This document shows positions 1-57,683 of a stretch of DNA of 64,000 nt, piece after piece. Location: contig CM022676.1 in NCBI GenBank assembly GCA_012295275.1, positions 16,058,001 through 16,122,000 on the forward strand, given 5' to 3'. Numbering within the stretch: position 1 is the first letter of the stretch; each line of letters begins with the position of its first letter. Origin of the DNA: Chrysomallon squamiferum. Lineage: Eukaryota; Animalia; Mollusca. The notes beneath the pieces are model-generated. The model saw only the letters and a program-made list of their open reading frames with translations. It was not told where the DNA came from and made no database searches. The translations under genes and the position numbers were made by a program.

Positions 1-1074
1 CTGCTAGCCCATCATCATCATCATTTTTGTTATTATTATTATCATAATTATAATAATTTTTATTTTTATTATTGTCATCGTCTTTATTACTGTTATTGTT
101 ATTGATGAATTGCAGTTATTTATCATCTGACAATGTAGACAAATGCAGATAATTTTTACTGTTTGTTTCTGCACTTATGCACAGACTATTAACAATGAGT
201 TTATCAGATCGTCGTACAATACACCCGGTGTACCCTTCTTGTCTCGCCATACACCCTGTTTAATCTGATCTACATAAGAAACAAACACGCACTCGCTATA
301 CTGGTTACACGAGTATCATTTGAGCAGGTTGTGTTAGGAGGTTAAATCTGTTTCAGATTAATGACTCTTTATTTTACGTGGCTTTGCAAATAATTTAGTC
401 TGGTTTATTTTACAACTTTGGCGTGTGATCTACTTGGCGTAAAACTAATTTGGCGTCAGATTTATAGCTGGCAGGTAAAATAATATTTCAAGATATACAT
501 ATATGCAAGAACATTACTTCGAAGCTACTTGGTCACTGATACATATATGATAATAAAAACAAAAATAAACAAAATAATAATTAAAATAAGTGTGTAGAAT
601 CTTCTGGTTGTAGAATAAATGTGTAGATTACACTCCAAATATTTTCTTGCGTTTCAGTTCATCGATTAATTATAAACATATAAATTAGAGAATAAAGAAT
701 AATAATGAATAAAAAAAAATAATAAAATAAAATAAATTTAAAAATTAAATTAATATAACAATAATAATAAAAATAAGCTTGTAGAATGTTGTCGGTGTAG
801 ATCACAAGGCAAAATAACACCCATCTAGCTATCGTGGTAGCAGTACTGAGCTGTTGCTGTCTGATCTAAATAACAAACATTCACGTTTTAGAAAATTCAC
901 TGAGTGAAAACGAGCTATTAAGTCATAAACAGTTCACAGCCAACAGAACATTTTAAAATTATTTTGACGTAAAATATAATTCTTTTGTGTGCGAGTTTTT
1001 TCAATTGCATATATAACTATAGACATGGGTGCCACATAATAAACAACATAATTTAGATTTTTAATGACTGTGAT

Positions 1075-1089
1075 TATATATTATTATTA

Positions 1090-1181
<92 letters not shown>

Positions 1182-1195
1182 ATTATTATTATTAT
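1075..1195 (+). repeat. (ATT)n microsatellite, representative of many such tracts
   Basis: Similar tracts at about 4143, 11240, 11890, 21385, 22105, 31640, 35010, 39700, 48490, 52845, 57603, 61945; they generate the poly-Y/L/I/N ORFs. Confidence 0.97.
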
Positions 1196-2452
1196 TTGAC
1201 TTTCACGGTCAACAAAGGGAATCTTGAGAGCAAAGATTTGCTATTTAATTTTCTGAGATATTTTTCTACCCCGTCTCTGTTTATGATTTAAATTTGCTAT
1301 GAATCTAATTCACAAGATTTGAATATGGGATGATTTTCACTGGTTTGTCGATAAGCGATGTTCTGACCTGCGTATTAATAACTGAAAAAGAGGATGAGGT
1401 AGTAGAAGAAGAAGATAACGTTCAACAATCTAAATGCAGCAAATAATAAAATGCATCTGCTTACCTTTTTTTTCATGTTTTATAATATATTATTGTTGTT
1501 TCTCCCGTTATTTTTGCTATTGAGCATGTGTTATTATTTATCATGAATGTTGATACACGTAAATTAATTCATATTTTCCTATTTATTTCTACAGTTAAAC
1601 GCGGACACCGTATAAAAAGTGAATTTTTCAAATCGTCGTAAATAACACTCGTCTGTACCTCTGTGTATCTTGTGCAGCAGTGACAGACTATTGTTATCTG
1701 ACGTACATGACAAACAAACACACATTTGCTGTACTGGGTATCCAAGTATGATTTCAGTGCCATTCCATGTACAGGGATCTATTTGGAAAACGAAAACAGC
1801 ATTACAAAATTATCTTTACGTATGCTGTATCTATCTACAACATAAAATAATAATTAAAAAAACATATAAACAAAACAAAAAAAAAAAAACCGGAAAAAAC
1901 AACAAGAAACAAACAACAACTGCACAATAATTAACATTAATCTACAATGGTTGTGTATATAGAATCATTCGAAACCGCAAAGTACGAAACGGACTATTTT
2001 CCGCTAGAAATATAATGAAGTATTTAAAGTTGTCGTCAGTCCGTGTTAAGCACTCAGAAACAGTCGTTATATTTTAACATATTTAACATCTGAGTGTCCA
2101 CCCTTTGTTAAGTGTCAACAATCATATCTAAATAGTATCCTTTGTCTGTATGTGCGTTTATGAATTGTGAAACAATCGTATCAAGTTATAGTCCTACAAT
2201 GTGCACAGTTGGTTTAAGTTATATATAAACATTTGTGTAGTTGCCTGTTTATGATTTGTCAAACAGTTACATCTAGAATAATTCTACAGTGTGTACATCT
2301 GGATTCAGTTAGCTTTCCGATTATAAGATTAAGCTTAGTCAGTCAGAATGTTATGTATATAAAGAAAGGAATCAGGATAAACATTAAGTTGTTTGTGTGT
2401 GGCAGAGAAAAAATGATTTCTTCAGTTTTTAAATAAGTAATATGAATCTTAA

Positions 2453-2842
2453 GGCAACTTAACGGCACAGAGATACCGAGATGAAATTTTGCAGACAAAT
2501 GTCGCTCCAATTATGAATAATGGTAACTCTGTATTCAATCACGATAATGCGAGACCACATACTGCCAGACTCACAACAGCGTACCTACACAACAACAACA
2601 TTCAGGTGCTGCCCTGGCCCTCTAAATATCCGGACTTGTACCCTATAGAGCATTTATGGGACGAGTTGGATAGACGACTGAGGCAGCATCAACCACACCA
2701 ACAGTATTGTGGTCAGTTGACATTATTACTACATACAGAGTGGGCCAGCATTCAATAAAGTGTAATTCGTAATGTCATTACTGTCATGGGAAGAATATGT
2801 CAGGCAGTTCTGGACTCCCATGGTGGGCACACAAGGAATTGA
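2453..2842 (+). mobile_element. Tc1-family (DD34E) transposase C-terminal remnant
   Basis: GNLTAQRYRDEIL..FNHDNARPHTA..VLPWPSKYPDLYPIEHLWDEL..GGHTRN; 34 residues between the second D and E; in-frame stop at 2756-2758; 5' truncated. Confidence 0.93.
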
Positions 2843-3918
2843 TATTATACTGCTATAACCTTGAACTTTAACCTTTTAATATAACATCATGAACATTAAT
2901 GAATTGCGAAAGTGTGTGTAAAATGTGAACATTCTGCTGTTTTCTGTTGATCAATTAGATAGATATTCCCAATGTCAGTCAAATCTACTTTTGCGGGTTG
3001 TTTTTTGTTAGAGCATACATCTTAACGTATTTAATATATGTCTGTGTTTACTTTTGTTAACTATTTTCCCCGCGATATATGATAAAACATTTGTATTTGT
3101 CGTCTGTCCCTGTTTAGAATGCACGAACAGTCGCTATATTTTCAGCATGTTCGGTATCTGAGTGATATCTGTGATATCTGAAAATTATTATAGTATGTAC
3201 ACTTGGTTTTAGTTAGCTGGCCTGTTACAAAATACTTTTATTAACTTTTATATGCTGCGATAAATAACAGATACAACTAATATTTATATAATTTTATTAT
3301 TATTTTTTGTGTGTGTTGATGTGTCTCTGTTTGAAAGTTTATAAGTTACCAAACTGTTATATCCAGAAAGATTCTATACTGTGTTCAGCTGGATTCAGTC
3401 AGCTTTCTTGATACAAAATTAAAGAGTTAAATGAACAATTTCATCACTAATTTCTTTTCCGGTTACTAATTCGCTGAAGAAAAGATTTTGAGAAAAAAAA
3501 AATAAAAAAATAAATAAATAAAACTTACGTATTGGAAGAAGAGAACTTAGACATAGATAGGTCTCCAGTTGTGGAAGAAGTAAATAGTTTTGAAAAAAAC
3601 AAAAACAAAAACAACTTCCTGCTGAATTATTATCTCAGTAACTATAATTCAGTGCATCTGTGTATCTTTATATATTTGAACCTTTGAGTACATTAATATT
3701 ATAAATATTGGTAACCGATATTTATAGCAATACTAGAGATAGAGCGACATCTTTATTTTACTCAACTTTACGTATATTACCGAATATCTGTTACATAATT
3801 TTCTTTACAAGGAAAAGTGATATGTTAGTATATACATGTCCGTTTCTTTGGGTTTTTCTTATTAAACAAATCATTATATTCTTACTCACATATCATATAT
3901 AACCTGTTATTGTTTCAG

Positions 3919-4063
3919 TCCCAGTACGGTTAGTGAATGGAAGAGGAATACCAACACAAGGTCGAGTTGAGATTCAAGTAAACGGGACGTGGGGAACAAT
4001 TTGTAAAAATAGTTTTGACACAAAAGACGCTGGTGTTCTCTGTTCAATGATGGGATTTAGTCG
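3919..4063 (+). CDS. Gene 1 SRCR1 half-exon A (W-type)
   Basis: ttcag|..cg|gtaaaa; [47 protein letters not shown], the classic VRL-GRVE-WGTxC SRCR N-half. Confidence 0.93.
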
Positions 4064-4145
4064 GTAAAAGAAAATATATCTTTTGTGTAATATTCCGTTG
4101 TTACGAACAACAAGATGATGAATATGTCTCATTATTCTATTTGTA

Positions 4146-4214
<69 letters not shown>

Positions 4215-7200
4215 GGTGTTATTATTAAAATTGTTTTTAGTTTCGAAGCAAAATTCTACACAGCATCACAGTTTGGACAAGGCAGTGGACCTATTTGGCT
4301 TGATGGACTTGACTGTAAGGGAGATGAAGAAAGTGTAGACTACTGTTCATTCTCTACTTGGGCTGAAAACAACTGTAGTCACAATCAAGACGTGGGAATC
4401 AGCTGTTTAAATCGCTGTAAGTAGATACATAAAAATTGTCGATAAAATTTACTAAACCATCAGTCTGTACCAGACGAAGTAGCCCGATAAAAGTCGAATA
4501 CCACCTATTTCATTGTGTGGTAAAAAGAATGAAAAACATCCGGGTATACTTCACTGTATTTTATTTAACAGTGGCAGTCTAATTATATCTGACCAACAAA
4601 AAAAAAAAAAAAAACATTCACTTCCTATACAGGTTACGCCAGTATCTTTTGAGTACCATTACACAGACATTGATATAGATAGAAGACGAAAAGAGCTTTA
4701 TGAAATTATAACATAAAAGAAGTAGGAAAAAGAGCTGCAACATAATTAAGATTAATCTAATCTAGAATGGATGCGTATATAGAATCATTCAAAACCGCAA
4801 AGTACGAAACTCACTGTTTTCACCTCCAAATATGACCAAAATATTTAAGGTTCGCATCATTCCGTCTTATATATGCCATTATTATTTGTTTAGCATGGAC
4901 GAACAGAATACACATGTTAAAGTATTTAATATATTCTGTGTTTACTTTTGTTAACTATTTTCCCCACGATATATAATAAAACATTTGTATTTGTCGTCAG
5001 TCCCTATTTAGGAAAAACGAACAGTCGCTATATTTTTAGCATATTCGGTTTCTGAGTGTGCACCCTTTTAAATGTGATACCTGGAAATTATGATACAATG
5101 TGCCCACTTGGTTTTAGTTAGCCCGCCGGTTGCAAAATAATTTTATTACCTTTTTTATGTTGCGTTAAACAACAGATACAATTACTTTAAAAAAAAAATA
5201 TATATATATATATATATTTTTGTTCTAATTTATTTTTTGTGTTCATGTGTCTGTGTTTGAAGGTTTATAAATTGGCAAACAGTTTTATCCAGAAACATCC
5301 TACACTGTATACAGCTGGATTCAGTTTGCATTCGTGTTACAAAATTAAAGAGTGAGAGGGTACCTGTTATATATATATACATACATATCTAAGATATGCT
5401 AACATTTATAACATTTTGGGGATACTAAATGTGCTTTTGTGCTGAAATAAACTTCAATATACTGCTGACGCCAGTAAGCGCGTTTCAATAATTTATAGAT
5501 AACAACATTTTATCCGTTATTATATTTGAATTTCTATATACATTTTTGCGGGTCTTAATTCATTTTGATAGTTTTTGATCAAGCTATTGAAGAAGGCTAA
5601 CGTTATGAAAAAACTCTCAAATTAGTGTCGTGAAAAAATTGTAAAATTAAATGTTGACTGGAAGTTCTCTACAGTCTTACTTCAGTCAAAACATGCTACT
5701 GGACTTAGAGACTGAAAGTGAAGAGTCGCTCGCCTAACTTACTTCTATGTACACTGGTCTGTGTTAGAACTGACACTGTATTTTTCCACTTTCTCACTGG
5801 ATATTTCCATTTTGTGACTGAATCCATCAAATAACCGTTCCAAGCATCGTGACACGAACAGTAGCTGTCCTCCATTTGTGATATTGATGGCCTAGCAGAT
5901 ATTATGATACGTCATTTTAGTTTTTCTGTTCACACAGATCCAAAGGATAACACATGAATACGCATTAGCATCTCTCTATAAGTTTTGATAAATGAGTTCA
6001 CAGATACATTATCGTATCTAGTTTATTGACATGTTTATAGTGATATCAATTTAACGAACAGCTTATGAACATTTACTGGATTCTTTCTTGTCTCAGTTTG
6101 TATGTAATCTGATAGTTCTCGAAATTGCATCAGTAGCATAAAATTCTAAACTAATTGAAGATTAGTAACTATCTAGTATCCTGATGAAATAAGGACATGA
6201 AATACGTCACATAATGCAGGCTAACTGTTTAGTGTCGTGCAGTTAGTCATGTCAGTGTCACTCGATTGCATTGTTCATCTTTAAACTAGCAGACTTAGTA
6301 TTTTTAGCAGAAACATAAGCATCAGATTCGAATGACGTATTCCAGTCTTTATGTGTCAGAATATTGGCTTATCGCCTGATGATGTTATAAATAGCTCGTT
6401 CTTTTACATTTGATGTTATTGATAAATGTTTGTCTGATATCTAGCATTCTGGTATTCAGACCATTGTCTAGTGGAACTTTGTTAAGCAGGAATGATACAT
6501 TACAGAAAAAAGTTAAGATGAATGACCAGAGTTCTGCTTTTCATCCACAGTATCACTGACACCAACATTACGTGTTGTTTGGTCTGTTATCACAAAATGT
6601 GTTTCTTCGCATAAGCTTTTGAAAGGGATTGTACTTGCAGCCTTTGACAGTTACAACATTTTCTTTCTTTAAACTTATTATTTTCGAATAGAGCTATTGT
6701 AACAAAACGCCTGTATATCAGAACTTATTATTTATTTTGCAATCTCTTTTATTAATGCTAAAATGAAGTTGAATTATATCATCCTATAGACATAACGATT
6801 GTAACAAATGCACAGTATTTATTAAAAGTTAAAGAAATCCAGATGGTTATTTCTAAAAGAAAAAAAAAAGAAACTAAAGAAACCAAAAAAAGAAGAAACA
6901 TTAGCACTAATATTTTTTCCGGTTACTTTTTCGCTGAAGAAAAAATTGAGAAAAAAATAATAATAATTAAAATAATTGAAGAAGAGAACTTTGACATACA
7001 TAGGTCTCCAATTGTGGAAGAATTAAATATTTTTGACCAAAACAAATCCTTCAGGTTGAATTATTATTTCACTAACTACAAGTCAGTGCATTAGTATATA
7101 TTTATAGATTGGAATCTTTGAGCACATTAGTATTAAAAATATTGGTTGCCGATTTAATACAATACTAGAGATAGCGCGACATCTTTATTTTACTCAACTT

Positions 7201-8960
7201 TACGTTTGTTACCGAATATCTGTTACATAATTTTCTTTCCAAGGAAGAGTGATATGTTAGTATATACATGTGTATTTCTTTTTTTCATTAAACAAATCGT
7301 TATATTCTTAACCACAGATCATATATAACCTGTTATTATTTCAGTACCAGTACGATTAGTGAATGGAAGAGGAATACCAACACAAGGTCGAGTTGAGATT
7401 CAAGTAAACGGGACGTGGGGAACAATCTCTAGAAGTAGTTTTGACACAAAAGATGCTGGTGTTCTCTGTTCAATGATGGGATTTAGTCGGTAAAAGAAAA
7501 CATATCTTTTGTGTAATATTCCGTTTTACAAACGTATTTTTGATTACTGCTGCTGTTGCTGCAGCAACTACTACTACTAATACTACAACTACTACTACTA
7601 CTACTAATAATAAAACTATTATTTTAATCAGCTATTTGATGTATGTCTGAGGTCTGTGTTTTGACACAAGAGATGCTGCTGTTTTCTGCTCACTGATGAC
7701 ATTTTGTGTCCGAAGTCGAGTTTACTGTGTAACTGTTAACGTTTCTCTGTCAACTAACCCGTTGGTTTAAGATAATGACAAGTTTTTAGTGTAATTTTTC
7801 CTCTTTCAAAAATACTGTTATCAGACATTGAACCTGATTGATATCTCCAGATATTAGAGTGATCAAAGCTTATTCTGTATTACTTTATTGTTTTGTGTCT
7901 CTGATTCTTATGTAAACAGTACTCGAAAACACATTTTGAATTAAGAAACAAAATAATTGATGGACAGGTTTCTTTCTACTTAAGAGGTTAGCATTAAAAC
8001 ATTTGGCTTTTTCAAAAGAGGAAGCAGTTTCCGTTATTCTCGCTATCGCTTCAGACGATATCAAATTGAAAAAAGAAGAAAAAAAAATCATGCTTTGTGA
8101 AGTTCTCAAAGACAAGAATATTTATTTCTTTTCTCATTGTTTTTCTTTAAATAAATACCACTCCAATAAAATAACTTAATAAGATAGATTCCACCATTCT
8201 TCATTCTCTAACGAAGACTCGTTTCATTGTAGCGTGATTCTAAAACATAAACTATGGAAATATAATTGTGTTAAAATGATTACTCCAATAGATGATCAGC
8301 AATGTATCATGATTTATCTCATATATATATTTCAGTGACGGAGCAAAGGTCTTTACAAATTATCCACCATATTTTGGAGAAAGTACAGGTCAAATATGGT
8401 TAGATAATCTTCAGTGTGAAGGAAATGAGACATCTGTTGAACAGTGTAGTTTTCGTCCTTGGGGAAAGAATTACTGTGCTCATTTTTTCGATGTTGGGAT
8501 ACGTTGTCAAGGTTCGCTACATAGAAGTGTAATTTTGCTGTATTTGTGTTGCTTTGCGTCAATATTTAGAATTTGAATGAGACAATACATTATGAAAATA
8601 TATTAGAAATGTAGGAAATACATAATAACAAGAATTAAAAACAAATTATACAGCCGATTTTGTGATGTATAATGTTCACACTAAATTATCTTTCATTTTG
8701 GGAACATAATAAATTACTGAGGAAACAATTTACACACAAGTTTGTATTCACTCTGATTCAATGCTGTTTCCCTAATTAATTTAATGTTAAATTACCGAAA
8801 TCTCTGAAATAGAAAAATCAACAAAATTCTTCTTACTCGGTTATCATGGTTCTCAGTTAGGGAGTCTTATTAATTAAATTGTTTCTAAAAAAAATGTTTG
8901 CTTTTGTGTTATTGCTGTTTCTGAGGTCCTAGTTCGTATTAGTTTTCGTACTGTAATGAT

Positions 8961-9027
<67 letters not shown>

Positions 9028-9940
9028 GTAACAAAATATTACAAAATAAAGAAAAAAGTGAAATAAGGAAAATGAAAAAGAACGGCAGAACGACGCGTTC
9101 GTATTTTGTTTTGTGTTTTCATTCGTACTTTAATTGTTAAAGGAATAATGTTGCGGAAAAATAAGTAAATAGAAAATATATAAATACCCCCCCCCAAAAA
9201 AAAAAAAAAAAAAAACACAAGGATCCGTATAAACAATACTTTATCTCAGTTTCCGAACCCATAAATGAAATATATCATCCTTTATTTCAGAGTCTATCAG
9301 ACTAGTCGATGGTGGAGGTATTTCAACACAGGGTCGAGTTGAGATCAAACTTAACGATAAATGGGGAACTGTCTGTGGTGACAAATTTGACGACAAAGAC
9401 GCAGGCTTTATCTGTACACTTTTAGGATTCAGTCAGTAAGAATGTTTTGGTTTCAATTAAACTTAATATTTTACACAATAACAAAATCTCAGAACGTTTA
9501 TATTTGTGTTACCGCAATTAAAGTGAAATCTGAATAACCCCCACAGCTTGAACAATATTTGTACTAACAAGATCAGACAACTCAGTTTGTGTTTTGTAAA
9601 TCCTAGATTCAACGCAAAGACGTATAAGAATGCTCACTTTGGAGAAGGAACAGGACCAGTGTGGGTTGATGATGTTAACTGTGTTAAAGATGAGAATGGA
9701 GTGAATCACTGTTCTTTCTATGACTGGGGTAGAAAAAAGTGTACTCATAAACATGATTTGGGAATAAGCTGCTTTCCTCAGAGTATGTTGTTTGTTTTGT
9801 TGTTTTTGTTTGTTGTTTTTTGTGCTATTTTAAGAACAAAATATTTAGCATTAAATGTGAAATGCATGAACCACTTAGTGTGAAAGGTATAGACTGTACC
9901 TTTTACATTCTTTGATTTATAAAATAACGCTGCATGACAT

Positions 9941-10022
<82 letters not shown>

Positions 10023-11273
10023 ATCGGCGAAATTATTATTATTATTATTATTATTTTTAATTAATTAATTAATTTTTTTTTTTTATATCTATTTACTATT
10101 ATTATTTTTTTATTATTATTATTATTTTTAATTGTCTTTATTTATTTTATTTTTAACATAGTAGAAAAAAAAAGATATGTGGCTTCTGTGTATTTCAGGT
10201 AAAAGTTGACTTTGTAAAAATGTATTGCTAATTATATAGCTCGATGTTGAAGTGATATCGCTTGGTAATATTATTTACGTAGATCTATGAAGCAAAAATT
10301 AATTTGGAACCGGACCGTTAAAGAAAACAAATGAAATTTTGAAAATGGTTTGTATTTGATCGTTTCTTCAACTGACTTCAGTTTCTATTAGATTGGCCAA
10401 TGGAGGAGGCATTGCAACACGAGGCAGACTTGAAATAGAAAACAACGGGACATGGGGAACTGTGTGTGATAATGAATTTCAAGACAGAGATGCTGCTGTC
10501 ATCTGTAACATGCTGGGCTTTAGTCGGTAAACAAATATTTTCCTAAAAACGATTTATTTATATCTATCAACGTTTATATCTTCAAGATAGAGTTTATGTT
10601 GTTACAGCTTTCGATGGAGCGACATGTATACAGTTATATTAAATTCCGAGTTCTTAATTCAATATTTTGCCTATTCTGAATTATAACTTATTAGTGTATA
10701 TATGTCTATATATATGTATATATGTTATAGTAACTAGAAATGGAGGAACACTACCCTCCATTTCTACGTAGTAAAATATTTAACAGCAATATTTCAGAAT
10801 ATTAAATATCTAGTAGTTTTAATCCACTTTTGTTTTTTAACCATTTTCCTTACTTAAATGTTTATTACACTGTCACGTAAAATTCGATTTAAATGAGATA
10901 ATATTATTGTGTTTTTTTTTTGTTTCTACACCATTAAATTATTATTGATTATTGTACAATAATACAAACAATAATTTAGTAAAATGTTTAACCCTAAAAT
11001 TAGTGTACGCTGTATTAATGAATTAGTGATGAAAAAATACACATTCAAGAAGAATTGAATAGTGAAATATAAATATCAATAAATAATTTGTGAAACGAAT
11101 AGTAAAAAAATTACAGAAAATGATCTGACTATAAATTATTGCTTTCGATTCTTTGTCACATTCTTGTATTTTTGAAATTTATTTTATACAGGATAGTCCA
11201 TCAGCAACATGAGGAGTAAGTCTCATTATTCTATATTGTATTATTATTATTATTATTATCATTATTATTATTA

Positions 11274-11344
<71 letters not shown>

Positions 11345-11881
11345 TATTATTAGTCTTGTTATTAAAATTGTTTTCAGTTTAGAAGCAAAATTCTATCCAT
11401 CATCTCAGTTTGGACAAGGTAGTGGACCTATTTGGCTTGATGGACTTGACTGTAAGGCAGATGAAGAAAGTGTAGACTATTGTTCATTCTCTACTTGGGG
11501 TGACAACAACTGTAGTCATAATCAAGATGTGGGAATCAGCTGTTTATATCGCTGTAAGTCGAGACATAAAAGTTAGTAAAATTAATGATAAAAAGACGTT
11601 TAAGGAACAGACTAATAGTGATCAATCTAGGAGATTTAAGAAAAAAAAAAAAAAATAAAAATGAAAATCTGAAGGTTTATGTTAATCAGACTGTTGTGTC
11701 TGTTATTTTAATTGATGTGTTTTCCATGTGTGATGAGTTTCTCTTTCATATCAGAATAAGACAATATGAACGGTTTCATTGTTGTGTAAATTTTCTTTTA
11801 CTAATATATGTGCATATAAATGTTAATAGTGTAGGTCGATTTGAAAGTGCTCCTTAGGAATTCTTAAAACAGGGATAAACA

Positions 11882-11934
<53 letters not shown>

Positions 11935-11940
11935 TTATTA

Positions 11941-11991
<51 letters not shown>

Positions 11992-12249
11992 TTTTTTTTT
12001 ATTATTATTTTTTTATTCCAGTATAGCAGTTTTCTTTGTTTAATATTAATATTTGCTACCAAAAGATGTCCGTTTACTATTGTTATGTGTCGATAATATT
12101 TACTAAAGGATCAGTCTGTACCAGACAAAGTACGCCGCCAACCACGAGTACCACTAACTTCATGGTCTGGTAACAAGCATAAGTAACACCCGGATATTCG
12201 GATCTGTATTTTATTTAACAGTGACAGTCTAATTATATATGACCTACAC

Positions 12250-12281
<32 letters not shown>

Positions 12282-15200: not shown

Positions 15201-17215
15201 ATTATGTTTTCTGACTTTAAATGTATTATTATTATTTTCGATCAGACCATTGTCACAAAACGCCTATATATCAGAACTTATTATTTATTTGAAAATTGCA
15301 TTTATTAATGCCGAAATAAATTTGAATTATCTCATACTATTTATGATAGTATTTGTGAAACAAGGAGAGTACTACTTAACAATTAAAAAATTATATGTCT
15401 TTGCACGGGTGTATCTGTATATATTTCAACCTTTCAGTACATTAATATTAGAAATATTGGTTGACGATATTTATGGCAATACTAGGAATATAGCGACATC
15501 TTTATTTTACCTAATTTTATTTTATTTTACGACATGCATGCTTGTTTGTTGCTTTGTTCGTTGTTGGTTTTTATTACACAAATCATAATGTTCATAGTTA
15601 CAGATCAGACGTAACCTGTTATTATTTCAGTACCAGTACGGTTAGTGAATGGAAGAGGAATACCAACAGAAGGTCGAGTTGAGATTGAAGTAAACGGGAC
15701 GTGGGGAACAATCTGTGATGATGATTTTGCTGACAAAGATGCTTCTGTTTTATGTCACATGTTAGGATTTAGTCGGTAATTGCTTCATTTATTTACCTAC
15801 TTACTTACTTTCTTACTGAGTTTGTGCAAGAGAATATTTTATACAGATGTAATTTATTTGGTTTTACTGATGATGAAAGTTAGTGATGATATTTACGTGA
15901 AATACTTTTTGACAGGATCGTTAATAATAATAATAATAAGAATAATAATAATAACAATAATAATAATAATAAGAAAAGAAGAAGAAGAAGAAGAAGAAAA
16001 ATAACAATAGTAATAATAATAGTAATAATAATAATAATAATAACAATAATGATAATAATAATTGCTATGAGAGGAAGAAGAAACAAAAAAGAACATCAAC
16101 AGCAAGTACAACAAAAAGTAACAGCAGTAGTAATTTCTAGCAATGATGATCTTGAGCGTTATAGGAACTATAATCAAGTCATCTTTGAATAATCAAATTT
16201 CGCTGGCGATATTTACACTATCTTTTTGGTAGCAAAGCATACATATTAAACATAGTTGAAATCACTTAGAAATTAACAAATGTCTTCTGAAAACGTCAGG
16301 ACTACGAGAAGATCTGTTGAAGGTGTTGTGGAAACCATGTTCAGTAATATTCATTTTACTCTACATATTATTTATTTTACAATGCATATTAATTTTATTT
16401 AAGGTTTAATGCTACATCATATCAAAATGCTCACTTTGGAGAGGGAACTGGACAAATCTGGCTTGATGATCTGAGATGTGATGGAGATGAAGACAGTGTT
16501 GAAAAGTGTTCATTTCGTGGCTGGGGAAAACACAACTGTCATCACTCAGAGGATGCTGGTATCAGCTGCCAATGTCAGTTTACATGTGACATTTTATTTT
16601 ATTTTATATTATTTAATTTACCTGTTTGTCAGCTACAAAACGTGATGCATGTTTTCTAAAAGATTATATTTAAAAATTTAATTTTGCAATCATCAGCTTC
16701 TCACAAAATAGCTTAACTTTTTTCATCCACATGTTTTATCACCATCTTACATTCTGTCTTTAAATTGGTATTCGGATGGGAATCGTTACACTCAAATGTC
16801 ATTATCCGTTACATGTCTCTAGAAGCAATTGGATACATTACGTTATGTGATTCAAGATATTCTTTACTTATGACTATATTTAGTTTTTATTAATTCATTC
16901 ATGAATTTGTATTTCCATTTATTTTTAATTTCTGTATGTATTTTATAACGGCTGGACATACTGCAGAGCTGTAAGAAATTCCATCTGCTCATATGAAACA
17001 TCTATCTCATTTACTTAAAAGCTATCTTCAAATGCATTAAACCCGCAGCAAATATCAAATTAATTTTTTATTTTTTTTTCTAACTTTACTTGAAATAAGA
17101 ATTATTGTTTTTATTCACTTGTTTTTTTTCTGACCATGATAAATTAATACTCTCATACCATATCTTTCATTTGCAGTTATAATGATACTATTTATTTATT
17201 TATGTATTTATGTAT

Positions 17216-17250
<35 letters not shown>

Positions 17251-20200
17251 TTTCTAGATGGAGTCCTGTCTGTTGCATTCATTCCCTCAGCTCCAGGAAA
17301 CATTGTTGAAGGAGAGACTCTAAATGTGTCCTGTGTGGCTAATTGTGACTCATCTTGTGTCTACACGTGGATAAGTGGAGATCGGTATTTGGTTAAGAGT
17401 TCTGTATTAACTGTTGGTCCTGTCAGCAGAAATCAGACAGGAGAAACATTTACATGTACAACAAGATATAATAGAAATTCAGGAAGTAACGAGTTCCAGC
17501 TTAGAGTTCTGTGTAAGCTCCAGATTCACAGATAAACTTACAACTATAAATACAAAGACGCTATAAATAAATAAATGAATAAACATCACATCTCAGGTTT
17601 ACATTTCTAACTCGTCTCGCCAAAATATGTGTTAAATAAAAGCATATTAATAAAATATACAAATATTTTAAAATAAAATCCAATGGTGTCTTCAGATTTT
17701 TCGCTTACATATTTTACCTTTTTTAAACTATATTTGAAACAAAAACTCAACATTTTTTAAAAAAAAAAAATTTATGCATTCATTATGCAAAGTTTTAAAA
17801 AGATAAACATTTACCATTTCTTTTCCGGTGTAATAGGCATACACTTCCACACCAGTAATATCTCATCTGTATTAAGAATTTATCCTTCACAATCATTTCT
17901 TTTTTAGTCATAATTAAATTATATTCAAGTTTTTCTTTATCTTGGATTCGAACTCAACACCATGAAATCGACTTCTAAATTTTTGCAGATCAAAAGTCAG
18001 TGACTTCAGATTTAGTAAATAGTTTTCTTTCATTGCAGACCAAACTTCTATTACATATTTGAGGTTGAACTCAAATTCTACAAAGATAACAGTTGATGAG
18101 CTGACTCCCATGACTCTGAGATGTGAAGTAGACAGTAATCCAGCATCTCACATCAAACTGTTGAACAACTCACACATTCTACGTGAAGTGAACAACTCCA
18201 AGTCAGTGGAGTACAGCTGGAATGAAGCTGGATGTCTGGATACAGGATTTTACACTTGTGAAGCAGGAAACAACGTCAAGTCTGATGTCAGTCAAAGCGT
18301 CGAACTTGTTGTTAAATGTAACTGCTATTTTTTACACACATTAGAATATCAGTAATCGTAAAATAGGCAACTTACATACACTGGTATATAAGTATATACA
18401 CAAACACACATACAGCAACACATATGCAGACACGTTCAGACATCCAAACATACACTAGCGCACTCTTTTCAATTTATTCTAATATGATCAGGTTTATCAA
18501 CGTTAATTAGCCTGACTGTCTTTTTGCCTACAAGGTCCACCGAGGATTCCTTCCAATGTGAACATAAAGAGAATCAGCTCTTCTGCCATCTCAGTGTCTT
18601 GGACAGAGGAATTTAACGGCGGCTTCGTGCAAATATTCATTGTACAGTACAGAGAAAGCACGTCAACACACTGGAACAACGTCACAGAGAAATTTCTAGA
18701 ACGTGGTCTACACACAACCCATACAACAGTGATAGCATCTCTGAAATCAGACACGAAGTATTTTGTGAGGATTTTGTCTTATAACAAATACGGAGATAAA
18801 GGTTTTACAGATGAGAAAGATATTTTGATGACAGGTACGCATATTAATAAAGAGGTAACATGCACTTCAGTAAAGTTATGTATCATAGTATTTTATTTGG
18901 TGACAGTCTCGATAGGACCGGAAAACAGTTTTATAGCTTATTTGACCATGAACGTTTTAGAAATTGCAATTATTGTGCGCTATCTTTGCACTTCTGGATG
19001 CAAATTTATTGCATAGATGAATCATTTTTGCACCTTTTCTTTTCAAATAGAAACTAAAATATTCTTCGTGATGTTTCTAAATGCACATTTCATTTGCTGT
19101 TACACTGATGCAAGTTATTTCGTTTATGTTTTTTCTTTCTTTCAAATATATGCATATATATATATATATATATATATTTGTAGATGGAGCCCTTTCTGTT
19201 GCATTCAGTCTTTCAGCTCCAGGAAACATTGTTGAAGGAGAAATTCTAAGTGTGATCTGTGTGGCTGATTGTGATTCATCTTGTGTCTACACGTGGAGAA
19301 GTGAAGATCGGTATTTGGTCAACAGCTCTGAGTTAACTGTTGGTCCTGTGAGCAGAAATCAGACAGGACAAACATTTTCATGTACAGCAAATAGTTCTGA
19401 ACGTTCAGGAAGTAACCAGTTCCAGCTTAGTATTCTTTGTAAGTTCCAGATTCACAGATAAAGTTCCAACTTCAAATTCGCACGCACGCGCACACACATG
19501 TCAAAAAAACAAACAGAAACATTAAGATAAACATTAAATACAAGCTTTGCATTTTTTCTTCATCTCTGCAAACTGTGTGTTACGTGAAAGCATGACAATG
19601 ATATATAAGTATATCATATATTAGCATAATTCAAGCTTTTCAACTTTATAAATAGCATGTGTGCAGCGATTACTTCATCATTTCTTCATCCTTTTCCATA
19701 TCTCACTCGCACCAAAATTGTACTTTAGTGCTCACAGCTTAACAATGTTTTTCTATTTCTCATTCCCAGTAAAACAGTTGTTGAAGCTTTTCAACTTTAT
19801 AAACATCATTTTGTTGTTGTTGTTCTTCTTTTTTTTGTGTGTTTTTTTCGCTTTATTTCTTTTTGACAGACATACATTTCCAAGCCAGTAATGCTTCACC
19901 TATTATAAGAATCTGTCACTCACAATAATCGATTGTTTATCATATATAAATTATATTGTAGCTTTTCTTCATTCTGGACTCAATTTCTAAAATGATTCAT
20001 TCAAAAAAGCGAATGTCTCTTAAATTGTTCAAAACTAATGACAAGTACATGTGGAATATCTTTGACCTTCCGCTTTACTGAACTCTTCAAATATCTGATT
20101 GCTATCATCATTTCGTTTTGAAACTTCATTACATGTTCTGTTTCTTCATTTTTTTTTACGAAATTATTGTCATCCACAATAGAAAACATCAGAGTCTACT

Positions 20201-21380
20201 GGAGAAAGGTGTCAGAGTAGACAGTGATACAGATGTGCTGACACTGTCACCTTCGCACTACAGTACTTGTGTGAAAAAGTTAAAACTTATTTTGCTTTAG
20301 CTACATAAAAATAAACAATTTTTATAAATATCGTTCCTACTTTAAATCAATATAAATAATATTTAACTTTTTTCATTTTATTCTGTGTTCATTCGAATTT
20401 ACTAGTAAATGGCTTGTTTCATCTTGCAGCTCAAACGTCAGTGATTTCACGTGTAGTAAATGTGTTTGTATTATTGCAGACCAAACTTATATTACATCTT
20501 TGACGTTAAACTCGAAGTCTACAAAGATAACAGTTGATGAGCTGACTCCCATGTCTCTGAGATGTGAAGTTGACAGTAATCCAGCATCTCACATCAAACT
20601 GTTAAACAGATCATACATTCTACGTGAAGTGAACAACTCCAAGACAGTGGAGTACAGCTGGAATGAAGCTGGATGTCTGGATACAGGATTTTACACTTGT
20701 GAAGCAGGAAACAACATCAACTCTGATGTCAGTCAAAGCGTGCAGCTCGCTGTTAAATGTAACTTCCATTTTTAACACATTAGATTATCAGTAATAGCAA
20801 AATAAACAAGTTACGCACATGAATATAAGCATATATACATATATGCCTATATACATATACACGGAGACGCACATACAAACGCATATATCCACACTGTTTT
20901 CTTTTTTCTTCTGATATGGTCAGGTTTATCAACGTTAATTAGCCTGACTGTGTTTTTGCCTACAAGGTCCACCTAGGATTCCTTCCAATGTGAACATAAA
21001 GAGAATTCAGCTCTTCTGCCATCTCAGTGTCTTGGACAGAGGAATTTAACGGCGGCTTCGTGCAAACATTTATAGTACAGTACAGACAAAGCACGTCAGC
21101 ACAGTGGAACAACGTCACAGAGAAATTTCTAGAACGTGGTCTGCATACAACCCATACAACAGTGATAGGGTATCTGAAATCAGACACGAAGTATCTTGTG
21201 AGGATTTTGGCTTATAACAAATACGGAGTGAAAGGTTTTACAGATGAGAGATATATTTTGATGACAGGTACGTATATTAATAATGAGGTAACATACATTT
21301 TAATATTCTGTTTCTTGCTTTTCCGATACAGGTAAACATGATATTGTTTTATTCGTTTGTAGTACCTATTTTTCTGAGAG

Positions 21381-21457: not shown

Positions 21458-22103
21458 GTTATTATTAGTAGTATTCATTTTGGTTTTGCGATAACTATAA
21501 CATTTGAAAACCAATTGTACAGGTGAAATTTTATATAAATGATCTTAGTAACAATACTGATGATTTTCTGGTATTTGTATAGTGTAGTTGCTTTTTTCCA
21601 GTACTGATTTACATATTAATTTTAAAATATTACATTATTCTCAGTATGATATTTAAAATTCATTAGCAAACTTTCCTTACCTCTGTCCTATCTTAAACCT
21701 TTATTTCAATATATTAGCGTGTTGTAATACATATTCCTTTAAGCTATATTTTATTACCTGTGTCAAACACTAGTAGTTTGTATGACATATCTCTATTCAA
21801 ATGAACAATTGTTGTTTCAGATGACGTGTCTAATATAAATTTGATAGTAGTCGCTGTTGGATCTGGATCAGGGATTCTCGTTTTAACTCTTCTTGTTGTC
21901 GCAACTGTCTTCATGTGCCGTAGACTGAGAAGAAGTTCGTACTGTTTCTTTCTTTTGTTTAAGTTTCAAAGTGCAAACGTGTGTCGTAGTGCATCTTCCT
22001 CTACGTCTATGTGTTTGTGAAAGAGATAGATCGGAAAATATGTAATACTTAAACAATTTGAGATAAATAGGAATACGCTTTGAAACAAAATAAAATTATC
22101 ATG

Positions 22104-22168
<65 letters not shown>

Positions 22169-25100
22169 CATCTTCCATAATAAAATAAAATGAAATTTAT
22201 TTTTATAAAGTATCGTTATTTAATATAACAAAATGTTGTGAAACGTTTTACCAGTTCACCTCATATTAGTTTGTGTTTGTTTGTTATTTTAGTACCTGTT
22301 ATTTTTATTTAACTTTGTTGTTTTTAGGAAATGCAAAAGATGAACATGTGCATGGAACAAGGTAACACTGACTCATAGTATGAATTAATGTAGTTTATTA
22401 TTGTTGTAACAGTGTATATGTTGGTAAATAGTGTGTTCATGTGTAACAGTGATTGTACATTTTATTGCCTATAAATGAATGAAAACATGTATAATGGAAA
22501 CGAAATGTTAAGAGTCTTCTGATAAAATATCCTATCCTGTTTTAATATCAGTGGTGTAACTTTCCAATCGGTTATTTGTGTGTTGAAGTGAAGCTTTGAG
22601 TTCTAAATGACGAACACAGTTCAGAGTTTTTATAACCAGTGAATCTGTAACCATGAGCAAATACCGATTGATGTCCCAAATATTTATGTGTAGTAGCCTC
22701 TGGTTTATTGACTATCTTGTGAGAGTTGACACATTGTTGTCTGGACGTAGATTCTCATTCTAACTCCAGACAGTTGGGTTAATGACACTGCGCTGTCGTG
22801 TACAGTTGTGTTAAATACACTGGGCTGTCGTGTACAGTTGTGTTAAATACACTGGGCTGTCGTGTACAGTTGTGTTAAATACACTGGGCTGTCGTGTACA
22901 GTTGTGTTAAATACACTGGGCTGTCGTGTACAGTTGTGTTAAATACACTGGGCTGTCGTCTGCAGTTGTGTTAAATACACTGGTGTCTAGTGTACAGTTG
23001 TGTTAAATACACTGGGCTGTCGTCTGCAGTTGTGTTAATGACACTCGGCTGACGTGTACAGTTGTGTTAATGACACTCGGCTGACGTGTACAGTTGTGTT
23101 AATGACACTCGGCTGACGTGTACAGTTGTGTTAATGACACTCGGCTGACGTGTACAGTTGTGTTAATGACACCCGGCTGACGTGTACAGTTGTGTTAATG
23201 ACACCGGCAGTCGTGTACAGATTAATGACACTCGGCTGACGTGTACAGTTGTGTTAATGACACTCGGCAGTCGTGTACAGTTGTGTTAATGACACTCGGC
23301 AGTCGTGTACAGTTGTGTTAATGACACTCGGCTGACGTGTACAGTTGTGTTAATGACACTCGGCAGTCGTGTACAGTTGTGTTAATGACACTCGGCTGAC
23401 GTGTACAGTTGTGTTAATGACACTCGGCTGACGTGTACAGTTGTGTTAATGACACTCGGCAGACGTGTACAGTTGTGTTAATGACACTCGGCTGACGTGT
23501 ACAGTTGTGTTAATGACACTCGACTGACGTGTACAGTTGTGTTAATGACACTCGGCTGACGTGTACAGTTGTGTTAATGACACCCGGCTGACGTGTACAG
23601 TTGTGTTAATGACACTCGGCAGTCGTGTACAGTTGGACACTCGGCTGACGTGTACAGTTGTGTTAATGACACTCGGCAGTCGTGTACAGTTGTGTTAATG
23701 ACACTCGGCAGTCGTGTACAGTTGTGTTAATGACACTCGGCTGACGTGTACAGTTGTGTTAATGACACTCGGCAGTCGTGTACAGTTGTGTTAATGACAC
23801 TCGGCTGACGTGTACAGTTGTGTTAATGACACTCGGCTGACGTGTACAGTTGTGTTAATGACACTCGGCTGACGTGTACAGTTGTGTTAATGACACTCGG
23901 CAGTCGTGTACAGTTGTGTTAATGACACTGTCCTGTCGTGTACAGTTGTGTTAATGACACTGTCCTGTCGTGTACAGTTGTGTTAATGACACTGGGCTGT
24001 CCTGTACAGTTGTGTTAATGACACTGGGCTGTCGTGTACAGTTGTGTTAATGACACTCGGCAGACGTGTACAGTTGTGTTAATGACACTGTCCTGTCGTG
24101 TACAGTTGTGTTAATGACACTGTCCTGACGTGTACAGTTGTGTTAATGACACTGTCCTGTCGTGTACAGTTGTGTTAATGACACTGGGCTGTCCTGTACA
24201 GTTGTGTTAATGACACTGGGCTGTCGTGTACAGTTGTGTTAATGACACTCGGCAGTCGTGTACAGTTGTGTTAATGACACTCGGCAGTCGTGTACAGTTG
24301 TGTTAATGACACTCGGCAGTCGTGTACAGTTGTGTTAATGACACTGGGCTGTCGTGTACAGTTGTGTTAATGACACTCGGCAGTCGTGTACAGTTGTGTT
24401 AATGACACTCGGCAGTCGTGTACAGTTGTGTTAATGACACTCGGCTGACGTGTACAGTTGTGTTAATGACACTCGGCAGTCGTGTACAGTTGTGTTAATG
24501 ACACTCGGCTGACGTGTACAGTTGTGTTAATGACACTCGGCTGACGTGTACAGTTGTGTTAATGACACTCGGCAGACGTGTACAGTTGTGTTAATGACAC
24601 TCGGCAGTCGTGTACAGTTGTGTTAATGACACTCGGCAGACGTGTACAGTTGTGTTAATGACACTGTCCTGTCGTGTACAGTTGTGTTAATGACACTGGG
24701 CTGTCCTGTACAGTTGTGTTAATGACACTGGGCTGTCGTGTACAGTTGTGTTAATGACTCTGGGCTGTCGTTGTCAATGTTAGTGAATTTTACACCGTTT
24801 TCCACGTATCTTTAATGTGTTTATTGATTAACACATCTTTCTCTGAAGTGAGAAAACTGATCCTTGCTGATCCAGAATGTGTTATACTAAACATTTATAA
24901 CCATATTCTGAAATGGTGATCTATCAGTAGGGGATGTTTTTGATGTGATATTTGCTGCTTTCAATGTCCAATCTTGACCACACAGATTTCTTTAAGAGAG
25001 TGACCGCAGGCGTACATCACTCTTTGGGTCCCGTTTTCCACTTCAGACAATGGAACACTGTCAAATTTACATTTTTCTTTTTCTTTTGATATCTTTCCAG

Positions 25101-26765
25101 CTAAGAGTAAGTGTGTGTATGTCAGTATATGTAGGCATACCACGGACCATCTTCCTAACAAAGAGTCTGCCTACGTGTCTGTATGTGGTGTATTTCTGTA
25201 TGTGATGCGTTTATGTATGTTTATGTGTATGCATGTATGTAAGTCATCTGTCCATATTTTGTGTTTGTACGTGTGGGCATATTTTGTGTGTGTTTGTGTG
25301 TATACATATATGTCTATGTGTGATGTGTGCATTTCTTTGTGTTTGTGTGTGATATGTATATGACGTCTGTCTGTACGCCCCTGTTTCTCGTGTTTTCACA
25401 TAAAAAGATTCAACTGTATAAGAAAGAAATGTCACATAAAATAATAACATAAAACGAGTCTCTGTTCAGTAGTCATCGTGAAGAATGATCGGCTATGATT
25501 ATTTCATGTAACGCCTTTCATATTAATGTCGTTCATATAAATAATGAGGATACATCGAGTTAGTTGTTTTATAGCATTTGCTTTATGTATGTGCACGTAA
25601 ATATGTTAATATGTGTGGGTTTGTTTGTGTTATTATCCAAGAATCCATAAGTTACATTATTCAGTAATTACCTTTTAATTAACTATTATTAACTTTTATA
25701 TAGTTATTTATTTTGTTAAATATATTATTTTTCTCTCATTTTCTTATTTTAACGTATTAGTCAATAACTGTATTGCTCTTCTTATTATTTTTATGATTGT
25801 GTTTGCTGTTATTATTGTTATTATTATTATGATTATTATTATTATTATTACTACTACTACAGAGAAATCATTTAACTTTGAATTGTGAGAAGTCTGTAAA
25901 TTTTATTATTAAAACCGAAAAGCTACCACTTAGAATACTTGTCTCTTTCAAATCACAGGAACGTTTCTGAACCGCAGTCTCGAACGTACGACAATCTTGC
26001 TTTTGAGCCTGGTAAGTGCAACATTTTCTAAATGTTTATTTGAAGACTTACTTTACTGAAAGCTGTTTAAATTCTGCTCGTTCAATACATATTAAGACGT
26101 CTGTGGTGTCCATCAGGAGAGAATGAATGAAGCTACGAAAGGAAGTGATCAATGAACAAGAAAAGAAAGGACTATGAAACAGAATGGTGAAAAGTAATAA
26201 TGAAATAATAATAATATAAAAAAGTTGTCATTTATATACTGGGCTAAGAACGTGTGAGTTATTTTGCATAACGTTAATGAGATAACAGAACTAATTTATA
26301 TTATCTCCTCAGATACGCAAAGTTTAATATTTGTCTGTGATAAATACAGAGTGTTTATAAACTAATGTTTGTGCAGTATCACAGGTTGTTTTATAAGCAC
26401 CATAAACCAATTTCTATCTTAATAGCTGAGTAAATTAGAATCTGGTGAAGTTAGGCTGTATATCGCGTTTGACATTGTTTTCTCTGTGTCACTCCTGTTT
26501 TTTATTTTTATTATTATTAATTTTTTATTTTTTTTTTTTTTAATGTGCGTGTATGTATGTGTGTGTATATATATATATATATATATAATAATATGTTGTT
26601 GTTGTCTTTTGTTACTTCTACGTTTAATTGTTAATGTATGACTTACTGTTTTTTGAAACGAAACATAAATACGTATATATGTTTTTTTTATTTCTTGTAG
26701 GGAACAGTCCAGAACCGAATCTGTATGAAGTACTTAGTGTCAAGGATAATGGACGAAGAAATTAA
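3919..26765 (+). CDS. Gene 1 (5'-incomplete, 20 exons): SRCRx5-(Ig-Ig-FN3)x2-TM-cytoplasmic ITAM-like receptor, about 1,175 aa in window if the FN3-2 frameshift is corrected
   Basis: Manual splicing of AG/GT-bounded exons with compatible phases from 3919 to stop TAA 26763-26765. The only lesion is a +1 T in exon 20967-21267. No signal-peptide exon seen in 1-3918. Confidence 0.85.
4241..4416 (+). CDS. Gene 1 SRCR1 half-exon B (Z-type)
   Basis: tttag|..t|gtaagt; [58 protein letters not shown]. Confidence 0.93.
7345..7489 (+). CDS. Gene 1 SRCR2 half-exon A (W-type, conserved Cys to Ser)
   Basis: [47 protein letters not shown]; 145 nt, AG/GT. Confidence 0.9.
7659..7705 (+). pseudogene. Degenerate orphan SRCR A half-exon fragment in a gene 1 intron
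   Basis: ttt gac aca aga gat gct gct gtt ttc tgc tca ctg atg aca ttt = [15 protein letters not shown], homologous to [15 protein letters not shown]. Confidence 0.65.
8336..8511 (+). CDS. Gene 1 SRCR2 half-exon B (W-type)
   Basis: [58 protein letters not shown]; ttcag| ... g|gttcgc. Confidence 0.9.
9291..9435 (+). CDS. Gene 1 SRCR3 half-exon A (Y-type)
   Basis: [47 protein letters not shown]; ttcag| ... ca|gtaaga. Confidence 0.93.
9607..9782 (+). CDS. Gene 1 SRCR3 half-exon B (Y-type)
   Basis: [58 protein letters not shown]; cctag| ... a|gtatgt. Confidence 0.92.
9943..10020 (+). repeat. (CT)n microsatellite
   Basis: Direct reading. Confidence 0.98.
10382..10526 (+). CDS. Gene 1 SRCR4 half-exon A (Z-type)
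   Basis: [47 protein letters not shown]; ttcag| ... cg|gtaaac. Confidence 0.93.
11220..15530 (+). repeat. Intragenic duplication (Z-B exon plus following long intron) of about 4125-7200
   Basis: Collinear intron blocks, e.g. GAGACTGAAAGTGAAGAGTCGCTCGCCTAAC at about 5708 and about 13184. Confidence 0.9.
11378..11553 (+). CDS. Gene 1 SRCR4 half-exon B (Z-type)
   Basis: [58 protein letters not shown]; ttcag| ... t|gtaagt. Confidence 0.93.
15631..15775 (+). CDS. Gene 1 SRCR5 half-exon A (X-type)
   Basis: [47 protein letters not shown]; ttcag| ... cg|gtaatt. Confidence 0.93.
16404..16573 (+). CDS. Gene 1 SRCR5 half-exon B (X-type)
   Basis: [56 protein letters not shown]; ttaag| ... t|gtcagt. 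Confidence 0.92.
17258..17512 (+). CDS. Gene 1 Ig-like domain 1
   Basis: [53 protein letters not shown]; phase 1-1 exon, tctag| ... t|gtaagc. Confidence 0.9.
18039..18317 (+). CDS. Gene 1 Ig-like domain 2
   Basis: ..[39 protein letters not shown]; DxGxYxC motif; tgcag| ... t|gtaact. Confidence 0.92.
18535..18834 (+). CDS. Gene 1 fibronectin type III domain 1
   Basis: [51 protein letters not shown]; 300 nt, acaag| ... g|gtacgc. Confidence 0.92.
19184..19438 (+). CDS. Gene 1 Ig-like domain 3 (duplicate of Ig1)
   Basis: [44 protein letters not shown]..; 255 nt, AG/GT. Confidence 0.9.
20480..20758 (+). CDS. Gene 1 Ig-like domain 4 (duplicate of Ig2)
   Basis: ..[30 protein letters not shown]..; 279 nt, AG/GT. 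Confidence 0.9.
20967..21267 (+). CDS. Gene 1 FN3 domain 2 (duplicate of FN3-1) with +1 frameshift
   Basis: 301 nt versus 300 nt in copy 1; gagaaTTcagctc versus gagaaTcagctc (21006-21007) gives TAA at 21047-21049; the rest of the exon is open in the shifted frame. Confidence 0.85.
21821..21934 (+). CDS. Gene 1 transmembrane exon
   Basis: [37 protein letters not shown]: hydrophobic helix plus basic stop-transfer; ttcag| ... a|gttcgt. Confidence 0.88.
22328..22361 (+). CDS. Gene 1 cytoplasmic micro-exon 1
   Basis: tttag|GA AAT GCA AAA GAT GAA CAT GTG CAT GGA ACA AG|gtaaca ([10 protein letters not shown]); phase 1 to 2 bridges its neighbours exactly. Confidence 0.7.
22770..24771. repeat. 32-bp minisatellite, about 62 tandem units
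   Basis: Unit GTGTACAGTTGTGTTAATGACACT + variable octamer (CGGCTGAC / CGGCAGTC / GGGCTGTC / GTCCTGTC / CGGCAGAC). Confidence 0.97.
25959..26011 (+). CDS. Gene 1 cytoplasmic exon 2 (first YxxL)
   Basis: cacag| ... g|gtaagt; [17 protein letters not shown]; phase 2 to 1. Confidence 0.78.
26701..26765 (+). CDS. Gene 1 terminal coding exon (second YxxL)
   Basis: tttcttgtag|; [21 protein letters not shown]-stop. Confidence 0.75.
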
Positions 26766-26826
26766 TATATCTCTTTATTAATGTGTTTACTTATAACATC
26801 GAAACAGCTTATTATGTCACTTTTAT

Positions 26827-30006: not shown

Positions 30007-30060
<54 letters not shown>

Positions 30061-31110: not shown

Positions 31111-31148
<38 letters not shown>

Positions 31149-31639: not shown

Positions 31640-31704
<65 letters not shown>

Positions 31705-32719: not shown

Positions 32720-32757
<38 letters not shown>

Positions 32758-41494: not shown

Positions 41495-41526
<32 letters not shown>

Positions 41527-46487: not shown

Positions 46488-52815
<6,328 letters not shown>

Positions 52816-52843
52816 TCCTGAGTGATTCTAGTGCATTATCTGA

Positions 52844-52886
<43 letters not shown>

Positions 52887-52951
52887 TAATAATGATGATA
52901 ACAATAATAATGATGATGATGATAATAATAACAATAATAATACTAATGCTG

Positions 52952-53003
<52 letters not shown>

Positions 53004-57601: not shown

Positions 57602-57683
<82 letters not shown>

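Follow-up and report, generated by a model that had tools for sequence, protein, structure and literature searches.

Can the front half of one SRCR domain and the back half of another come to stand together in a single gene, by what kind of event, and with what consequence for the protein? These questions are raised by a locus at the beginning of the window, the whole stretch of 64,000 nucleotides of Chrysomallon squamiferum DNA analysed here. The window has 30% GC and one gap (45981–46180), and it contains three copies of a gene with two-exon SRCR domains, which fall into four classes, termed W, X, Z and V. Each domain is split into a front-half (A) and a back-half (B) exon and, given that the SRCR ligand site is built from both, a breakpoint inside the domain matters. 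The features of the hybrid domain are as follows.

3919..4063, plus strand: SRCR front-half (A) exon of class W, with two cysteines and K-N after the first of them (145 nt, flanked by AG and GT)
4064..4108, plus strand: 5' part of the mosaic intron, W-intron-like, with GT donor (42 of 44 columns match 7490–7533)
4106..4109, no strand: breakpoint zone with about 1–3 shared bases (intron alignments)
4108..4240, plus strand: 3' portion of the mosaic intron, which resembles the Z intron and contains an (ATT)n tract (about 4147–4214) and a TAG acceptor (34 of 39 columns match 11202–11241; 22 of 26 match 11352–11377)
4241..4416, plus strand: SRCR back-half (B) exon of class Z, with four cysteines (176 nt)

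Both exons of the hybrid have an open frame, canonical splice sites and a match to the Pfam SRCR profile (PF00530; 44 bits for the A half over profile positions 5–41 and 48.6 bits for the B half over positions 50–99, with a cutoff of 26.1), in agreement with the earlier note on this DNA, which had described the two halves as intact. The A exon is 95% identical to the W-A exon at 7345, 92% to the W-A exon at 47158 and 69% to either Z-A exon. The B exon shares 93%, 87% and 90% identity with the Z-B exons at 11378, 47922 and 59568, respectively, and 59–62% with three W-B exons. At diagnostic sites, defined as positions at which two W domains share one fixed state and two Z domains another, the A exon carries the W state at 28 of 29 (none Z, one other), and the B exon carries the Z state at 34 of 37 (two W, one other; A versus B, Fisher p = 4e-16). 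These counts confirm, in the assembly, the junction that the earlier note had proposed, a W-A front half beside a Z-B back half, in frame. Its further observation that W-A pairs with W-B and Z-A with Z-B elsewhere also holds, as the nearest neighbours of the A and B exons belong to the same class in each of the 9 remaining complete domains of the window, a count that leaves out an X copy with a truncated B exon and two orphan B exons.

Separate trees of the A and B halves, which had been suggested as a means of detecting incongruence, place the hybrid A half with W (95/99) and the hybrid B half in the Z clade (97/97). Approximately unbiased (AU) tests gave a weaker result: the placement of A with Z was rejected (p = 0.016 and 0.005), but that of B with W was not (p = 0.098 and 0.078). 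For the B half, we prefer the diagnostic-site counts to the AU tests because the hybrid can stay beside Z even in a constrained tree. Group A SRCR domains are characterized by six cysteines, and the hybrid domain has six, two in the A half and four in the B half. Judging by this cysteine pattern and by matches to solved SRCR domains, the product, if spliced, would probably adopt the fold of a group A SRCR domain.

The mid-domain intron of the hybrid (4064–4240) is 177 bp long and lies in phase 2. Its first part (4064–4108) aligns to 7490–7533 with a local score of 75, the best of 473 random window pieces reaching 32, and the following stretch (4108–4143) aligns to the Z intron with a score of 47, the best of 473 random window pieces reaching 30. 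The intron is, as had been claimed, a mosaic that starts like the W intron and ends like the Z intron. The breakpoint, formerly placed at 4100–4125, could be narrowed by aligning the three introns to about 4106–4109, in unique sequence approximately 40 bp upstream of the ATT tract. Introns of the same phase let half-domain exons recombine in frame, a process known as intronic exon shuffling, and here the breakpoint lies inside introns of equal phase, with the frame kept. The two parent introns, W and Z, cannot be aligned at the joint, where the long shared sequence expected of non-allelic homologous recombination is lacking. Because the two introns are unalignable at the joint, share only about 1–3 bases there and switch about 40 bp before the ATT tract, we prefer a non-homologous, intron-to-intron deletion to a crossover between aligned repeats. 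The claim of recombination inside the mid-domain intron is upheld as regards a rearrangement joining W-A to Z-B.

The sequences flanking the hybrid can be compared with an intact domain triplet located further downstream in the same gene.

3010..3918, plus strand: upstream intron, a shortened copy of the Z-to-W intron (3010–3427 matches 12562–12991 and 4912–5353; 3445–3918 matches 6905–7344)
4417..7344, plus strand: Z-to-W intron, paralogous to 11554–15630 (4437–7098 aligns to 12088–14644 at 9–14% divergence)
7345..11553, plus strand: intact W-X-Z triplet, a model of the pre-deletion state (exons 7345–7489, 8336–8511, 9291–9435, 9607–9782, 10382–10526 and 11378–11553)

To the left of the joint, the sequence is that of a W unit (3445–4108 matches 6905–7533), and to the right, that of a Z unit (4108–7098 matches 11202–14644). 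Divergence from the intact triplet amounts to 11.6–12.5% on the W side and 8.9–14.2% on the Z side, so that the two sides are about equally diverged, as a single, earlier triplet duplication would predict. The upstream intron (3010–3918) implies a putative Z-B exon upstream that was either lost or is distant. In the intact triplet, the points equivalent to the two sides of the joint are 3,668 bp apart, with 642 coding nucleotides between them, a multiple of three. Intron phases are shared across all five A and all five B exons of this gene (gene 1), and the mid-domain introns are all in phase 2. Consequently, any cut from one mid-domain intron to another keeps the frame automatically, and the intact halves are, therefore, no sign of selection.

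We propose that the ancestral order was W1-X1-Z1-W2-X2-Z2-V, in a tandem (W-X-Z)n array. A W-X-Z triplet would first have been duplicated, and a non-homologous deletion would then have extended from the W intron to the Z intron of the first triplet copy. The deleted piece, of about 3.7 kb, would have included W-B, the whole X domain and Z-A (four exons), leaving W-A and Z-B in frame across the mosaic intron. Exon losses of this kind are also found nearby, in the gene at 55400–59743, where X-B is truncated and both W-B and Z-B occur as orphans, and they lend support to the proposal. On balance, the W-A/Z-B join probably arose by such a non-homologous deletion of about 3.7 kb in a tandem W-X-Z array, and the hybrid would have arisen as a side effect of turnover in the array, not as a new binding surface favoured by selection. 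Several points count against this reading: the junction rests on one assembly, the AU test of the B half is not significant, the RNA contigs and the signs of a functional copy described below speak for a working gene, and the parents W1 and Z1 are not seen in the window, a join of two paralogs fitting the same data.

Such a join would be a fusion of two paralogous genes, with W-A and its upstream intron illegitimately recombined into the Z intron of another copy. Close copies of the family are indeed numerous, as 109 contigs from DNA run X1 and 233 from DNA run X3 fall on 707 bp. Moreover, the upstream piece 3445–3664 branches outside the pair of in-gene copies (14% from either, against 10% between the two), and the sequence left of 2442 matches the intergenic stretch 40219–42540. 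We nevertheless consider a fusion unlikely, since it needs an extra event, whereas one internal deletion explains both the order of the exons and the equal divergence of the two sides.

It is improbable that the junction is an assembly chimera in which two loci were misjoined. The region is multi-copy and repetitive, the window contains the gap at 45981–46180, and the 1-nt indel of the second FN3 exon might reflect an error of the consensus. The joint, however, is located outside the microsatellite, in unique sequence and with almost no shared bases, and both flanks are 9–14% diverged from the neighbouring copies and so do not represent a duplicated haplotype. Furthermore, the left flank is found letter for letter in two other runs. 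Contigs from 4 of the 10 listed sequencing runs aligned to 3440–4146, with a best share of sampled words of 0.46 in any run, and the source reads of the assembly do not seem to be among those runs; the contig figures are drawn from the best 18 of 50 loose-end rows and the best 23 of 349 pieces. The left flank is identical in DNA contigs from two runs belonging to two studies (X1 over 3798–3906 and X3 over 3803–3911, with 0 other letters). In X1 and X3, W-type introns run on undeleted at 4083–4099, and therefore intact W copies close to the hybrid copy exist. Depth in these two runs is nil at 4112–4146, a short piece abutting the microsatellite, where the Z-type intron contigs of every copy are equally missing and some contigs are filtered from the alignment, so that it is no measure of absence.

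RNA contigs provide information on splicing in the family. In run X8, at least two contigs carry a W/V-type front half immediately preceded by the end of a Z-type back half, and at least one similar contig is present in run X9. The Z-type back half in the X8 contigs is nearly identical to the B exon of the hybrid. These contigs speak for splicing of Z-B to W-A and for the family being expressed, but not for expression of the hybrid copy. Linker exons after Z-B, for which candidates had been picked by eye at about 4475 and 12117, were discarded, as the RNA contigs join Z-B directly to a W/V front half. A same-species protein able to reveal the kind of front half that stands before a Z back half was not found: one comparison gave no candidates, and the best match was 52% among 9 matches in a second and 52% among the best 150 of 11,170 in a third.

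A third possibility, and a decidedly improbable one, is a tandem duplication of a Z-B...W-A block, with the joint lying between the copies and an ancestral order of Z followed by W, as in the minus-strand gene. Such a duplication would give the observed order W-A, Z-B, W-A, W-B, and Z does precede W at 49311–46488. It predicts, however, that 3010–3427 is closest to 4912–5353, while the measured divergence is 14.4% there and 9.5% to 12562–12991, and a Z exon is absent from 1–3918. Least credible of all is an unequal crossover, homologous or microsatellite-guided, in which the trinucleotide tracts of the W intron would have paired with those of the Z intron. ACT/ATT-type tracts do lie near the breakpoints in both parent introns, but the switch is upstream of each tract, and some 40 bp of unique sequence from the Z intron was kept before the ATT run. 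The tracts may have promoted the break, though the exchange was not aligned by them.

If a deletion within the W-X-Z array is taken as the origin of the hybrid, its function is a separate matter, for which the rest of gene 1 has to be considered.

2442..3009, plus strand: 5'-clipped Tc1/mariner-like transposase piece (Pfam PF13358, DDE_3, E 2e-8 in the ORF 2453–2755, a 101-codon frame; outer limits inferred from flanking matches)
15631..16573, plus strand: V-class SRCR domain in two exons (exon calls)
17258..21267, plus strand: duplicated Ig-Ig-FN3 cassette, the second FN3 exon (20967–21267) with a 1-nt frameshift (domain search and exon model)
21821..26770, plus strand: an exon with a predicted transmembrane segment, and a tail of three small exons that carries two YxxL motifs (exon model from splice signals)

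Gene 1, on the plus strand, has the predicted order W-A/Z-B hybrid, W, X, Z, V, Ig, Ig, FN3, Ig, Ig, FN3, transmembrane segment and short tail. The YxxL motifs of the tail exons (25959–26770) are YDNL and YEVL, suggesting signalling or endocytosis, and a minisatellite of about 2 kb, with units of about 32 bp, occupies 22770–24771 within an intron of the cytoplasmic tail. The second FN3 exon measures 301 nt, versus 300 in its twin at 18535–18834, a difference that is either real or a consensus error. When this exon is omitted, the frame continues to the membrane segment and the model runs through 1,076 codons without a stop. In comparison with the sister exons, pN is lower than pS both in the A half (0.028 vs 0.091) and in the B half (0.050 vs 0.181), these values resting on small counts. 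Given this pattern in both halves and the open 1,076-codon model without the frameshifted FN3 exon, the gene 1 copy may be functional.

The same copy also carries signs of decay. In the W-A exon at 7345–7489, the conserved cysteine after WGT is gone (S-R-S in place of C-K-N/Y), leaving five cysteines in that domain. Leftward of the hybrid, the order is upstream intron, clipped transposase and intergenic-type sequence. A signal-peptide exon of the type found in the neighbouring genes (52815, 55400) was not found in 1–3918. A weak signal-peptide candidate at 1543 is at the false-positive rate of control scans; the first exon may be situated to the left of the window. The predicted lack of a neighbour-type leader exon, the clipped transposase, the FN3 frameshift and the cysteine loss are thus all putative signs of decay.

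Whatever its origin, the hybrid might be expressed and favoured by selection as a receptor domain that offers a new ligand surface, such a surface being what the earlier note had inferred; we regard this reading as doubtful. It has open halves, six cysteines and canonical splice sites, and the cation sites of the human protein DMBT1/SALSA mix residues of the two halves. In the available text of PMC7043408, the exposed cation sites of SALSA SRCR8 are described as using D1019, D1020, D1058, D1059, N1081 and E1086, with site 2 formed by D1019, D1020 and E1086 and site 3 by D1020, D1058, D1059 and N1081. When mapped by motif spacing, D1019 and D1020 fall in exon A and the other site residues in exon B. 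A SALSA-type cation patch is, therefore, drawn from both halves, and a half-swap would change it. In the hybrid, the same motif-spacing mapping gives K, N and Q for site 2 and N, D, G and N for site 3, unlike the SALSA type. A near-complete acidic set is kept only in intact V domains. The composite cation patch of the predicted hybrid would thus be without the front-half acidic pair. Relative to the Z domain, the change is the loss of an acidic residue, and therefore binding loss is as plausible as a new specificity. A selected role is also opposed by the automatic retention of the frame, by the residues K-N in place of D-D and Q in place of E, by the frameshifted FN3 exon and by the lack of a signal-peptide exon for this copy among the features found in the window. 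An older discordance between front and back halves, in V versus W and in Gigantopelta, is in its favour and is described below.

The two other copies of the gene lie further along the window. Gene 2, on the minus strand, has a signal peptide followed by V, X, Z and W as far as the gap. Its sister, gene 3, is oriented head to head with it and has stops and missing exons. The two genes constitute an inverted duplication, head to head (50922–57258, 74% over 2.4 kb), with signal-peptide exons whose ATG lies at 52815 on the minus strand (gene 2) and at 55400 on the plus strand (gene 3). Gene 3 (56014–59743) looks like a pseudogene by its sequence. It has a stop in V-B, a truncated X-B and an orphan W-B with a stop, and its orphan Z-B is missing the AG acceptor at the expected place, all of them further half-domain losses. 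Intergenic duplications of up to about 90% identity (29153–33588 vs 59785–64000 and 115–2439 vs 40219–42540) indicate segmental turnover around the genes.

Discordance between halves is also seen beyond the hybrid. The V and W classes have front halves that are 81% alike and back halves that are 61% alike. For V at 15631 versus W at 47158, the front/back discordance has p = 5e-5, and five other class pairs range from p = 0.02 to 0.7. V (15631–16573, 51460–52152) and W (7345–8511, 46488–47158) have front halves and upstream introns in common, but not back halves, possibly an older half-swap. In the protein P0002 of Gigantopelta aegis, the front halves of domains 2 and 5 group with that of domain 6 (90/89), and their back halves with those of domains 1, 4 and 7 (88/87). 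Forcing the front-half group on the back-half tree was rejected (p = 0.0007) and the reverse was not (p = 0.065), values that are optimistic because the groups were named after viewing the distances, with the halves cut by motif and front halves being generally more conserved. These older cases, as far as sequence comparison goes, hint that half-swaps recur. We tentatively suggest, as an idea more likely to fail than to hold, that peltospirid vent snails diversify their SRCR receptors by repeated recombination of half-domain exons, at the DNA level and possibly by splicing, which would reshuffle a composite, cation-dependent ligand site. Under this suggestion, the present locus would be a recent case with its breakpoint, and V versus W and Gigantopelta would be older, fixed ones.

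The mosaic is real in the assembly, and its significance is modest. If hybrids of this kind are expressed and common, the SRCR arrays of symbiont-bearing, biomineralising snails would diversify by half-domain combination and not by domain number alone, and the SRCR family described here is a ready test set for such combination. If the copy is headless or decaying, the hybrid is commonplace debris left by a tandem array with fast turnover.

Half-domain combination is known from Dscam, in which half-Ig exons are combined by regulated alternative splicing; in contrast, the evidence at the hybrid locus is of one genomic rearrangement. The closest named relatives of gene 1 are the 'DMBT1-like' SRCR-Ig-FN3 proteins of Gigantopelta aegis (P0002, P0096), which have the best A-half identity, 77% among 93 matches. 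As in gene 1, the SRCR triplets of these proteins are arranged in tandem and precede Ig, FN3, a hydrophobic segment and a short tail, but the W, X, Z and V back halves of the window form a group of their own (88/85), and the available texts record no mosaic intron in Gigantopelta. Gene 1 combines an SRCR array, Ig, FN3, a predicted transmembrane segment and sequence affinity with the peltospirid DMBT1-like SRCR-Ig-FN3 receptors. In Chrysomallon squamiferum itself, which is the scaly-foot snail, the available text of PMC7142155 gives up to 65 tandem DMBT1-like paralogues with 0–5 SRCR domains each, and that of a second paper gives a count of 70 (PMC7736800); paralogues are expressed in the mantle and scale epithelium according to both. 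The array is multi-copy and variable in domain number, as in the window, and the available parts of the two papers treat domain number, not half-domain hybrids (PMC7142155, PMC7736800). True DMBT1/SALSA, as outlined in the accessible portion of PMC7736800, combines SRCR with CUB and zona pellucida domains, with SRCR domains of type B. No CUB or ZP domain was found in the predicted model of gene 1, which, with this model and its six-cysteine domains, is a predicted DMBT1-type scavenger receptor and not a true DMBT1.

In human DMBT1/SALSA, the gain and loss of tandem SRCR units within the gene alter the protein and its binding, as stated in the available text of PMC9038570 and PMC7043408. There, the domains are of type B, with four disulphides, are 88–100% alike and vary as whole repeats (PMC9038570, PMC7043408), whereas those of the window have six cysteines, fall into divergent classes and are interrupted by an intron. 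Sponge and sea urchin SRCR arrays show tandem expansion, multi-exon domains and exon loss among sibling paralogs (PMC10855680), and the available portion of that paper describes exon loss and whole-domain change, with no in-frame front/back hybrid that has a mapped intron breakpoint. Front/back SRCR hybrids were likewise not found in the titles or abstract openings among the open-access matches listed. Hence, same-phase exon shuffling and the turnover of SRCR repeats are already known, and what the present locus adds to them is the base-level breakpoint of a swap inside an SRCR domain.
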